39,738 bases of DNA, from positions 1-39,738 of the IMG/VR virus record IMGVR_UViG_2778261509_000011, one strand, 5' to 3'. The stretch comes from a virus (Duplodnaviria; Heunggongvirae; Uroviricota; Caudoviricetes). Position 1 is the stretch's first letter, and each line of letters opens with the position of its first letter. A program made the position numbers. Positions 9,325-12,300 of the stretch are shown piece by piece.

Positions 9325-12300
9325 TAAGACATTCCCGCTCTTACACATCCCAGCCCTGAAAAAGGGCATCAAATTAAACCACACCTATGGTGTATGCATT
9401 TATTTGCATACATTCAATCAATTGTTATCTAAGGAAATACTTACATATGGTTCGTGCAAACAAACGCAACGAGGCTCTACGAATCGAGAGTGCGTTGCTT
9501 AACAAAATCGCAATGCTTGGAACTGAGAAGACAGCGGAAGCTGTGGGAGTTGATAAGTCGCAGATCAGCAGGTGGAAGAGGGACTGGATTCCAAAGTTCT
9601 CAATGCTGCTTGCTGTTCTTGAATGGGGCGTCGTTGACGACGACATGGCTCGATTGGCACGACAAGTTGCTTCGATTCTCACCAATAAAAAACGCCCGGC
9701 GGCAACCGAGCGTTCTGAACAAATCCAAATGGAATTTTAATAACATCCAACGAGGTAATTATATGCGAAACAAAGGCTTTAATCCACCTGATACACACAA
9801 AGAAGCTAAGCGTTTGCGCTTCCTTCGTTCCATTGATGAAAGAACTCAAATCTCTTTTGTGAAAGTTGCCAGAACTGAGCTTCTGAAGGCTGAGGCGAGG
9901 GCGTTGCTCCCGTCCCTACCAAAAGAGGAGGGATATACGTTCATTCCAAACGCATTTCTGGAAAAGCTGCTCAAAGAAGACATATCCGTAAGTCAGTTTA
10001 ACGATGTTCTTAAGGTCTTTCGTCAAGGCAGGTAGTTATGAGCAATACAGCAAAAATCTACGATTTCAGCGCCGCACACGAGCGCAGGAGCAACAGGATG
10101 GAGAACCAGAAAACTGGTTACATTCCGTTGTACCGGAGCATTCTGAAACAGTCATGGGCGAAAGATGTTTATCTTCGCACCCTGTGGGAAAACCTTCTCC
10201 TGAATGCCGCCAGAAAGCCATACAAAGCGAATTTCAAAGGTCATGAATGGCATCTGCAACCCGGTCAACTGGTTGTGACAGCAGCTGATTTAGGTCTTCA
10301 GTTATGCGACAGGCATGGCAAGCCGGCAAGCCGTGATCAGGTTGAGCGGATGCTTCAGGTTTTTGTGAAAGAGGGGATGATCTCCATTGATGGAGAGAAG
10401 CAAAAAGGTCGTGTGATAACCATCACAAATTACCATGAATATGCTCAAAAAATGGACAATTTACCCGCACATGAAGCCGCACAAACAACCGCACATGATG
10501 CCGCACATGATGAAGCCAGTAATGGCGCGGCTTTCAGCGTACATGTCGCACATGAAAGCGCACATGAAGCCGCACAAACAACCGCACATCATGAACAAGA
10601 AGGTATTAACAAGAATATAAATAATACCCCCCTACCCCCCAATGGGGGAGGCGATGGGCAGGTTAAACCTGAACGTCGCAAGGCAGAACGAATCGACTAC
10701 GAATCCTTCCTGAACGCCTACAACACCGAAGTCGGTGACAGGCTGCCACACGCTGTTGCGGTCAACGAGAAACGCAAACGCCGCCTGAAGAAAATCATCC
10801 CGCAACTGAAAACGCCAAACGTGGACGGTTTCAGAGCGTATGTCAGGGCGTTTGTGCATCAGGCCAAGCCGTTTTACTTCGGAGACAACGACACGGGCTG
10901 GACAGCTGATTTTGATTACCTGCTGAGGGAAGATTCGTTAACGGGAGTACGGGAAGGGAAGTTTGCAGACAGGGGGATTGCATGAGACAGGATATCGAAG
11001 CGAGCGTTATCGGTGGCCTGCTGATTGGTGGATTAACACCAACCGCCAGCGACGTTCTGGCAACGCTGGAGCCGGAAGCGTTTTCAATTCCGCTCTACCG
11101 GAAAGCCTTCGAGGTTATCCGCAAGCAGGCGAGAAACAGAAACCTAATCGATGCGCTGATGGTTGCCGAGGCGTGCGGAGAGGAGCATTTCACGTCAATC
11201 CTGATGACCAGCAAAAACTGCCCGAGTGCCGCAAACCTGAAGGGATATGCCGGAATGGTCGCGGATAACTATCACCGCCGTCTGGTGCTGGAAATCATGG
11301 ATGAAATGCGTGAACCAATTCAGAGCGGAACCATCGACGCATCGAGTCAGGCGATGGATGAGCTTGTAAAGCGTCTTTCAGCCATCAGAAAGCCCCGTGA
11401 CGAGGTTAAACCTGTACGGTTAGGGGAAATCATTACTGACTACACTGACACGCTTGACAGGCGTCTGAGGAACGGAGAAGAGTCCGATACCCTGAAGACC
11501 GGAATCGAAGAACTTGATGCCATCACCGGAGGGATGAACGCGGAAGACCTGGTGATAATCGCTGCTCGTCCTGGTATGGGGAAAACCGAACTGGCGCTGA
11601 AGATTGCCGAAGGCGTTGCAAGACGCGTTATCCCTGGTTCTGACGTTCGGCGCGGAGTGTTGATTTTCTCGATGGAAATGAGCGCATTGCAGATTGCAGA
11701 GCGAAGCATCGCCAACGCCGGGAGGATGTCGGTTAGCGTACTGCGAAATCCTGCATCGATGGATGACGAAGGCTGGGCGCGTGTTGCTAACGGCATGAGT
11801 CAGCTTGCAGATTTGGATGTATGGGTAGTCGATGCCTCGCGGTTATCGGTCGAAGAAATACGCTCAATCGCAGAACGGCACAAACAGGAACATCCAAACC
11901 TGTCACTCATCATGGCGGATTATCTTGGCCTGATTGAGAAGCCGAAAGCAGATCGCAACGATCTCGCAATTGCCCACATCTCCGGAAGCCTGAAGGCGAT
12001 GGCGAAAGACCTGAAAACACCGGTTATCTCCCTGAGTCAGCTTTCGCGCGATGTTGAAAAGCGACCAAACAAACGCCCGACAAACGCAGATTTGCGTGAT
12101 TCAGGAAGCATTGAACAGGACGCAGACTCAATCATCATGCTCTATCGGGAGGCGGTATATGACGAGAACAGTAGCGCCGCGCCATTTGCTGAAATCATCG
12201 TGACGAAAAACCGTTTTGGCTCGCTTGGTACGGTTTACCAGCGGTTCTGCAACGGACACTTTGTTGCATGTGACCAGGATGAAGCCAGACAGATTTGCAC

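Follow-up and report, generated by a model that had tools for sequence, protein, structure and literature searches.

The location of a replication origin within the gene for its own initiator is textbook knowledge for lambdoid bacteriophages. In phage lambda the origin consists of repeated sites (iterons) and an AT-rich tract (PMC7466680, PMC3349717), and lies between the parts of the initiator gene that encode the DNA-binding N-terminal domain (N-domain) and the C-terminal domain (C-domain). Phages lambda, P22 and L have different iterons inside their initiator genes, with four sites of about 20 bp in lambda and P22, so that differing iterons among P22-like phages are already known (PMC8022706). 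Here we describe a putative origin in the IMG/VR virus record IMGVR_UViG_2778261509_000011, a member of the Caudoviricetes, of which positions 1 to 39,738 (39,738 nucleotides) were analysed as one stretch, called the window below. Judged by comparison of sequences, the region at 10465–10648, inside an O-like or gp18-like initiator gene of 315 codons (10038–10985, plus strand), is very probably the theta replication origin of this phage, of the ordinary lambdoid kind and with repeats that are neither those of lambda nor those of P22.

Other described systems are also close to this locus. In the gene 18 region of phage L, six imprecise 11-bp repeats, TGTCCAACGGA, were proposed as the origin by Casjens and co-workers on the basis of sequence alone, and the L initiator is just distantly related to P22 gp18 and lambda O (PMC8022706). 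Phages 933W and P27 have six lambda-type iterons, and the extra iterons matter in replication (PMC7466680). A literature search gave no description of the CCGCACAT repeat class, of its two-cluster layout or of the residue/base pairing reported here, with the older papers on HK620, Sf6 and CUS-3 lying outside the search and an earlier mention there being possible. Searching the literature for the repeat sequence itself, or for the encoded peptide AHEAAQTTAH, returned unrelated primer hits only.

Repeat array and AT-rich tract inside the initiator gene

The array (10465–10593) is composed of eight head-to-tail 12-bp units with the core CCGCACAT/A, arranged in two clusters of four. The units of cluster 1 (10465–10512, plus strand) start at 10465, 10477, 10489 and 10501 and read CCGCACATGAAG, CCGCACAAACAA, CCGCACATGATG and CCGCACATGATG, and those of cluster 2 (10546–10593, plus strand) start at 10546, 10558, 10570 and 10582 and read TCGCACATGAAA, GCGCACATGAAG, CCGCACAAACAA and CCGCACATCATG. 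Tandem Repeats Finder reports a period of 12 bp in each cluster. Similarly, the heptamer CGCACAW occurs on the plus strand in exact 12-bp register at 10466, 10478, 10490 and 10502 and again at 10547, 10559, 10571 and 10583 (8 copies), with only 6 copies in the remaining 39.6 kb, both strands counted. By Poisson statistics, at least eight of these heptamers fall within 125 nt with a probability of about 1e-21, which correction for all windows raises to about 1e-18. Totals of CGCACAW and of the 10-mer CCGCACATGA (up to 2 mismatches) over the whole window are not above shuffle expectation; it is the clustering of the cores, not their total count, that is significant.

Between the clusters lies a spacer of 33 bp (10513–10545, plus strand) with the partly conserved sequence CCAGTAATGGCGCGGCTT, which contains an imperfect inverted repeat, GAAGCC-N11-GGCTTT (right arm GGCTT(T/C) across the window, L111 and L003–L028). 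The length of the spacer is constant, and its motif persists in a relative whose protein identity is as low as 48%; this segment could be a second protein site or could merely encode a conserved SNGAA peptide. In the array itself, an inverted-repeat search gave no arm pairs and nothing beyond two trivial 6-bp palindromes, the units being without a dyad, and there is no DnaA box, IHF consensus or GATC in 10440–10700. A single near-copy of the core, CCGCACACGA with one mismatch, was observed at 10072–10081 (plus strand) near the 5′ end of the initiator gene, and is probably meaningless because such matches occur at chance level window-wide.

The array runs directly into a 36-bp AT-rich tract (10591–10626), a predicted DNA-unwinding element that begins inside the tail of the last unit, and the absence of any gap between array and tract holds in all relatives too. 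The tract has 19.4% GC, its top strand is 72% purine, and of all 36-mers in the 39.7-kb window it is the least stable (0.01% of windows are as unstable). A second repeat array or a comparable AT tract was not found in the replication gene region. Immediately downstream is a C6-ta-C6-aat-G5 run element (10627–10648; C6 at 10627–10632 and 10635–10640, G5 at 10644–10648), which could form a 5-bp stem with a 3-nt loop and which encodes PLPPNGG, a case of the conserved peptide PLPPxGG. Folding of 10618–10662 gave a hairpin of −7.5 kcal/mol, with z = −0.2 against dinucleotide shuffles and 76 of 200 shuffles at least as stable, and hairpin stability was consequently rejected as evidence.

Much of this anatomy had been anticipated by the original prediction, which placed an origin at 10440–10640. 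Its two direct repeats of about 30 bp, encoding AHEAAQTTAH twice, are an exact 31-bp repeat, CGCACATGAAGCCGCACAAACAACCGCACAT, at 10466–10496 and 10559–10589 in the initiator frame, and the AT-rich tract that it set after the repeats is indeed present. Its "about six copies" of the motif agree with the exactly six copies of CCGCACATGA found in the array at up to 1 mismatch, but two further units read CCGCACAAAC and the total is eight. Likewise, its coordinates cover the array and the AT tract but cut the run element, which ends at 10648, and its C5-aat-G5 inverted repeat exists in the longer form given above but is not general to this type of origin and folds no better than shuffled sequence. 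It had also dismissed a 61-aa open reading frame (ORF) at 10435–10620 (plus strand) as a product of the repeats, and this ORF is best read as such an artefact: it is out of frame inside the initiator gene, with the CACATGA units providing ATG and no stop. A 45-aa ORF on the minus strand (10461–10598) is another out-of-frame product of the repeat, and neither ORF has a PHROG match.

The initiator and its likeness to lambda and P22

The N-domain of the initiator belongs to the lambda O family. Residues 20–132 match Pfam PF04492 Phage_rep_O (E 3e-15, 56.9 bits against a cut-off of 28.7), and the protein matches PHROG 345, 'replication initiation O-like', with E 3e-100. The gene is 98–99% identical to annotated O/replication genes of CUS-3, Gally, HF4s and JEP4, and dozens of Stx2a-converting phages carry the same gene at 97.9–98.9% identity. 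A winged-helix N-domain at residues 30–138 (coding 10125–10451, plus strand) is predicted from an AlphaFold model. The model was built from a shallow alignment of 24 sequences and has a mean predicted local distance difference test score (pLDDT) of 61, with 10-residue block means of 64–88 over residues 31–140, where a helix at 82–88, a helix at 99–111 and a beta-hairpin at 115–129 make up a winged helix-turn-helix. The predicted recognition helix would be residues 99–111, with Asp100 as its second residue and Ala82 as the first residue of the preceding helix. The top Foldseek neighbours of the N-domain in the PDB are the winged-helix proteins MarR, CodY, RosR, CadC and TubR, at weak E values of 0.016–0.15 that were taken as consistency only, and a sequence search of solved structures gave no match.

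Residues 139–216 have pLDDT below 50 and no secondary structure in the model, and form a predicted disordered linker. Codons 143–204, which span the array, the AT tract and the run element (10465–10648), thus fall entirely within this low-confidence segment, between the DNA-binding N-domain and the C-domain. As the origin DNA encodes part of a predicted disordered linker, the protein should tolerate constraint at the DNA level there. The helical C-domain (residues 217–305, coding 10686–10952, plus strand; helices from 221 to 305 in the model) is of the P22 gp18 type and would be the domain that contacts the helicase. BLASTP identity between the initiator and P22 gp18 is 52% and is confined to residues 167–309, with nothing significant between the N-terminal half and gp18.

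The likeness to lambda lies in the family of the N-domain and in the plan of the origin, which in lambda is likewise inside the initiator gene, with repeated sites followed by a purine-rich AT tract of about 36–38 bp (PMC3349717, PMC7466680). In addition, many relatives of the N-domain and array of the window are linked to a lambda-type C-domain, with a lambda P-like gene downstream. However, the lambda iterons are four dyad sites of about 17–18 bp, TCCCTC-N5-GAGGGA (6-5-6), spaced 20–24 bp apart, whereas the window has eight 12-bp units without a dyad and no lambda iteron core anywhere in the gene. The repeats have no sequence similarity, and lambda O and the window initiator give only a marginal BLASTP match (E 0.004 over 69 residues). 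Their partners differ as well: the gene downstream of the window initiator encodes a phage DnaB-type helicase, whereas lambda P is a loader for host DnaB. As such, the origin does not have lambda specificity.

In P22, a rep_origin is annotated at 32840–32984 of BK000583, inside gene 18, and it occupies a place equivalent to that of the window array, as do the annotated iterons of lambda. The resemblance to P22 is restricted to the right side, where the gene order, the C-domain (52%), the helicase (90%) and the end of the AT tract followed by ACCCCC..ACCCCC..GGGGGA are shared; in a by-eye alignment to P22 32962–32985, ACCCCCTTACCCCCTAAAGGGGGA after the P22 AT tract stands against ACCCCCCTACCCCCCAATGGGGGA in the window. 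On the left side the two differ. The four TTTACC-N5-GGTAAA-like dyad sites (6-5-6) of P22 have no counterpart in the window gene, the P22 core TC[AG]GT[AC]AA occurs 0 times in 10038–10985 against 5 times in P22 gene 18, and CGCACAW is absent from P22 gene 18 and from lambda O. Because the P22 iterons and the P22 N-domain are both missing, the origin specificity is not that of P22, and the description of the repeats as P22-type in the original prediction could not be maintained. Its broader proposal, iterons and an AT-rich tract in lambdoid arrangement inside an O-like gene, is upheld by the anatomy, by the position relative to P22 and lambda, and by the constraint and covariation among relatives.

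Phage L, also P22-like, resembles the window in having short repeats of about one helical turn rather than sites of about 20 bp, and its repeats imply that the dyad is not universal in the group (PMC8022706). The two phages differ in repeat sequence and number. Phages 933W and P27 are alike in that iteron number varies among lambdoid origins, but they have lambda-type dyad iterons and lambda-like O and P, while the Stx2a phages that carry the gene of the window have the CCGCACAT class and a DnaB-type helicase.

Constraint, repeat classes and modules among relatives

The same layout is kept in 171 related loci. Scanning one genome per species yielded 25 prophage loci with N-domains 67–82% identical to that of the window, from Trabulsiella, Enterobacter, Brenneria, Sodalis, Citrobacter, Yersinia, Pantoea and other Enterobacterales, and two annotated phages were added (Klebsiella phage 2 LV-2017 and Yersinia vB_YenM_29.18). 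Every complete locus, including 25 of 26 prophage loci from other Enterobacterales, has 3+3 or 4+4 units at a 12-bp period, then CATGAACAAGAAGGTAATAACAA..., then an AT tract. Measured between unit starts, the last unit of cluster 1 and the first of cluster 2 are 45 bp apart in 25 of the 26 diverse loci scored; the remaining one has 57 bp, and its missed unit reads CCAAGCAT. Positions 1–8 of the unit carry 1.2–2.0 bits of information each, compared with 0.07–0.5 bits for positions 9–12.

The conserved positions include silent ones. Read in the initiator frame, the units are xCC GCA CAT, and the residues after His vary freely. Position 2 of the unit, the wobble position of the preceding codon, is C in 68/68 units, and the wobble base of the Ala codon is A in 67/68 units of ten loci (A-class) and G in 106/108 units of sixteen other loci (G-class). 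In the adjacent N-domain, by comparison, the majority wobble base at columns with an invariant residue is found in just 67–71% of loci, with Ala spread about equally over the four GCN codons. Selection on the peptide cannot account for a silent choice between GCA and GCG that is fixed throughout the units of a locus, and the repeats are under DNA-level constraint. Among 58 near-identical IMG/VR copies the core is almost constant and the four tail bases are variable, with 4+3, 3+4 and 4+2 variants present. The protein-based IMG/VR scan returned only copies 99–100% identical to the window, which are informative on copy number rather than on divergence.

The initiator occurs naturally in lengths of 284, 315, 346 and 377 residues (the last counted from the first Met; P0118, P0074, P0083, P0115 and P0124), with one, three or four clusters in the variants. 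The steps of 31 residues equal 93 bp, the spacing of the exact repeat, as unequal crossing-over would produce. Smaller length differences of 4 and 8 residues were observed among the relatives as well. In the search for N-domain homologues (P0001–P0036 and others), many 'partial' initiators of 146–248 residues end inside the repeat array, and assemblies of short reads are apparently prone to breaks at this origin.

The repeat class covaries with the initiator. In window numbering, all A-class loci have Ala82 and Asp100 and all G-class loci have Ser or Thr82 and His100 (26/26 diverse loci), and no other N-domain column splits the two classes as cleanly. The same association was found from the DNA side, by searching IMG/VR for CCGCGCAT-N4-CCGCGCAT and keeping loci that have a related initiator gene upstream of an array of at least 5 G-type cores: all 69 loci so obtained have His100 together with Ser/Thr82, and none has even one CGCACA unit. 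The other 51 of the 120 pattern-scan hits, with neither an upstream initiator gene nor an array of at least 5 cores, were regarded as chance. When the two columns are masked, the classes are interspersed on neighbour-joining trees of each N-domain half, which require at least three or four switches. Furthermore, a third core, CCGAWGAAC, was found in a relative that shares 48% identity and has another helix (KSPQAVTRMINFF); its 12-bp units are again arranged 3+3 around the same spacer. In two pairs (L004 and L018, the window and L021), the first ~54 residues of the N-domain are near-identical, and the second half (codons 55–121) and the repeat class differ; such a pattern points to a recombination breakpoint inside the N-domain, in which case the specificity unit would be its second half plus the repeats.

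The same N-domain and array are joined to C-domains of the P22 gp18 type, of the lambda O type and of at least 2 other types. The join is always directly after the AT tract, where relatives with other C-domains diverge, and from about 10611 on the DNA is ~90% identical to phages with other N-domains (ST104, HK97, BTP1 and several Stx phages). A P22-type C-domain is followed by a DnaB-like helicase in 76/76 loci and a lambda-type C-domain by a lambda P-like protein in 57/57. Taken together, the link between C-domain and partner and the shared joins indicate that a left module (N-domain and repeats) behaves as the origin-specificity unit and a right module (C-domain and partner) as the helicase-delivery unit, a split that is the classical lambdoid picture (PMC8022706, PMC2629481). 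In the lambda record NC_001416, two misc_recomb points are annotated at 39157–39166 (L030 558–567), at the right end of the AT tract, which is the place of the module joins here. Of 78 loci whose C-domain is of the P22 gp18 type, 77 have the run element, and all loci with a lambda-type C-domain lack it; L021 and P0146 have a P22-type C-domain without it, and L026 has a similar C5..C5..G5 element beside a different C-domain. It can be regarded as a feature of the P22-type right module, of unproven function, rather than as something that defines this origin type. Two IMG/VR copies (L031 and L057) have C5 for C6 in the first C-run, which shifts the frame of the C-domain and is either a homopolymer sequencing error or the mark of an inactivated initiator.

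A further possibility, held tentatively and at somewhat less than even chance, is that the CCGCACAT family is a distinct geometric class of lambdoid origin, in which one winged-helix domain would occupy each non-palindromic 12-bp unit and two short head-to-tail protein arrays would flank the 33-bp spacer, with a code in which residue 100 (Asp/His), helped by residue 82 (Ala or Ser/Thr), reads core position 5 (A/G). The units have no dyads and odd numbers per cluster are common, which would make one domain per unit more likely than dimers on palindromes, although this is speculation. If the code is real, D100H alone, combined with A-to-G changes across the units, would be enough to re-target the origin, and nature would hold a set of mutually orthogonal origin/initiator pairs usable with either a helicase-type or a loader-type right module.

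Interpretation, genome setting and significance

By analogy with the lambda system (PMC7466680, PMC3349717) and with P22 gp12 as a DnaB-type helicase (PMC8022706), the parts of the origin may be expected to act in order. The winged-helix N-domain would bind the eight 12-bp units in their two clusters of four to form an O-some-like nucleoprotein complex, this complex would destabilise the adjoining 36-bp AT tract at 10591–10626, and the P22 gp18-type C-domain would then recruit the DnaB-type helicase that the phage itself encodes, in the next gene, to the opened DNA. That the origin actually fires is likewise something that we infer. Eight co-oriented units with a constrained core that covaries with recognition-helix residues are good candidates for the binding sites.

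Other explanations for the array have been considered. Such a sequence could be a low-complexity Ala-His linker grown by replication slippage, without any function as DNA and with the true origin elsewhere; the segment is predicted to be disordered, and its length varies by whole repeat blocks as in a slippage-prone linker. It would be difficult, however, for a linker alone to keep its synonymous core positions so nearly invariant (68/68, 67/68 and 106/108, against 67–71% in the adjacent domain) while the peptide positions after His vary freely, to fix the silent GCA/GCG choice in all 6–8 units of a locus in step with residue 100, and to adjoin the least stable DNA of the window at the location of the P22 and lambda origins, which leaves this explanation barely credible. 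Iterons of iteron plasmids have control roles, and the array could be a genuine initiator-binding site that serves mainly in control (titration or handcuffing of the initiator, autoregulation of the transcription that crosses the gene, or the exclusion of related phages), with strands opening elsewhere. In lambda-type phages, ectopic ITN3-4 together with oop transcription silences replication (PMC3349717), and the two-cluster layout and conserved spacer have no explained role in initiation. Yet the array abuts the most unstable duplex without a gap in all relatives, the arrangement at which lambda opens (PMC7466680), and the replication gene region offers no second array or comparable AT tract. 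A role mainly in control is therefore very improbable, and control and origin roles are in any case compatible.

The run element raises a different question, namely whether its inverted repeat is essential to the origin, for example as a cruciform or hairpin that marks helicase entry. P22 and nearly all loci with the P22-type right module keep it, the rare codons CCC and GGG/GGA recur in it, and the similar element of L026 stands next to another C-domain. These observations are offset by a hairpin that is no more stable than those of shuffled sequences, by the lack of the element in L021, in P0146 and in all lambda-type modules on the same iterons, and by the PLPPxGG peptide, for which selection on the protein may explain the element; an essential role is unlikely.

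Several points weigh against the reading of 10465–10648 as an origin of this kind, or against parts of it. The reading rests on comparison, and the literature searched holds no binding, unwinding or origin-activity data for this repeat class. With no dyad in the units, the binding mode is not simply transferable from lambda, and support for the winged helix is weak (mean pLDDT 61; best fold match E = 0.016). Tandem repeats can also evolve in concert by gene conversion or slippage, and single-cluster (three-unit) variants exist in nature, so that the two-cluster layout may be dispensable. Moreover, the covariation of residues and bases could in part reflect physical linkage, as the recognition helix is encoded only ~130 bp upstream of the repeats, and the neighbour-joining trees, which rest on 54–65 columns and ignore recombination, are supportive rather than conclusive.

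The window as a whole is a mosaic P22-like (Lederbergvirus-type) coliphage with HZ41, IME10, Gally, CUS-3 and Sf6 as its nearest records. Its gene order of cI, cro, cII, initiator and DnaB-type helicase is that of P22, with a cI-type repressor at 8376–9008 (minus strand) and cII (Pfam Phage_CII) at 9387–9740. The helicase gene, a homologue of P22 gene 12 (10982–12358, plus strand), overlaps the initiator stop codon by 4 nt, and its product matches Pfam DnaB_C (E 9e-78) and the DnaB N-terminal domain (E 4.5e-13) and is 90% identical to P22 gp12 across all 458 residues. Between cII and the initiator, a 90-aa ORF (9763–10035, plus strand) ends 3 nt ahead of the initiator start codon and matches PHROG 2519, a family without known function, from end to end (E 2e-57). 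This ORF is probably a genuine small gene, transcribed together with the replication genes; in CUS-3 the homologous stretch between cII and O carries no annotation.

The finding places the start of replication in this phage and accounts for the repetitive stretch of the initiator and for two spurious ORFs, as well as for the frequent assembly breaks and the 31-residue length variants found in databases. The cassette is common, with 406 relatives in IMG/VR, and is found in P22-like coliphages, in many Stx2a-converting phages and in prophages across many genera of Enterobacterales. For 55 full-length database matches, the annotation of the matching stretch lists coding genes only and no origin feature. 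Toxin production by Stx phages is linked to their replication (PMC7466680), and knowing the origin class of such a phage therefore has practical value. While the textbook view of lambdoid replication is unchanged, three repeat classes in one layout, accompanied by predicted changes in the recognition helix, provide a natural experiment on the evolution of origin specificity and on module swaps at the AT tract.

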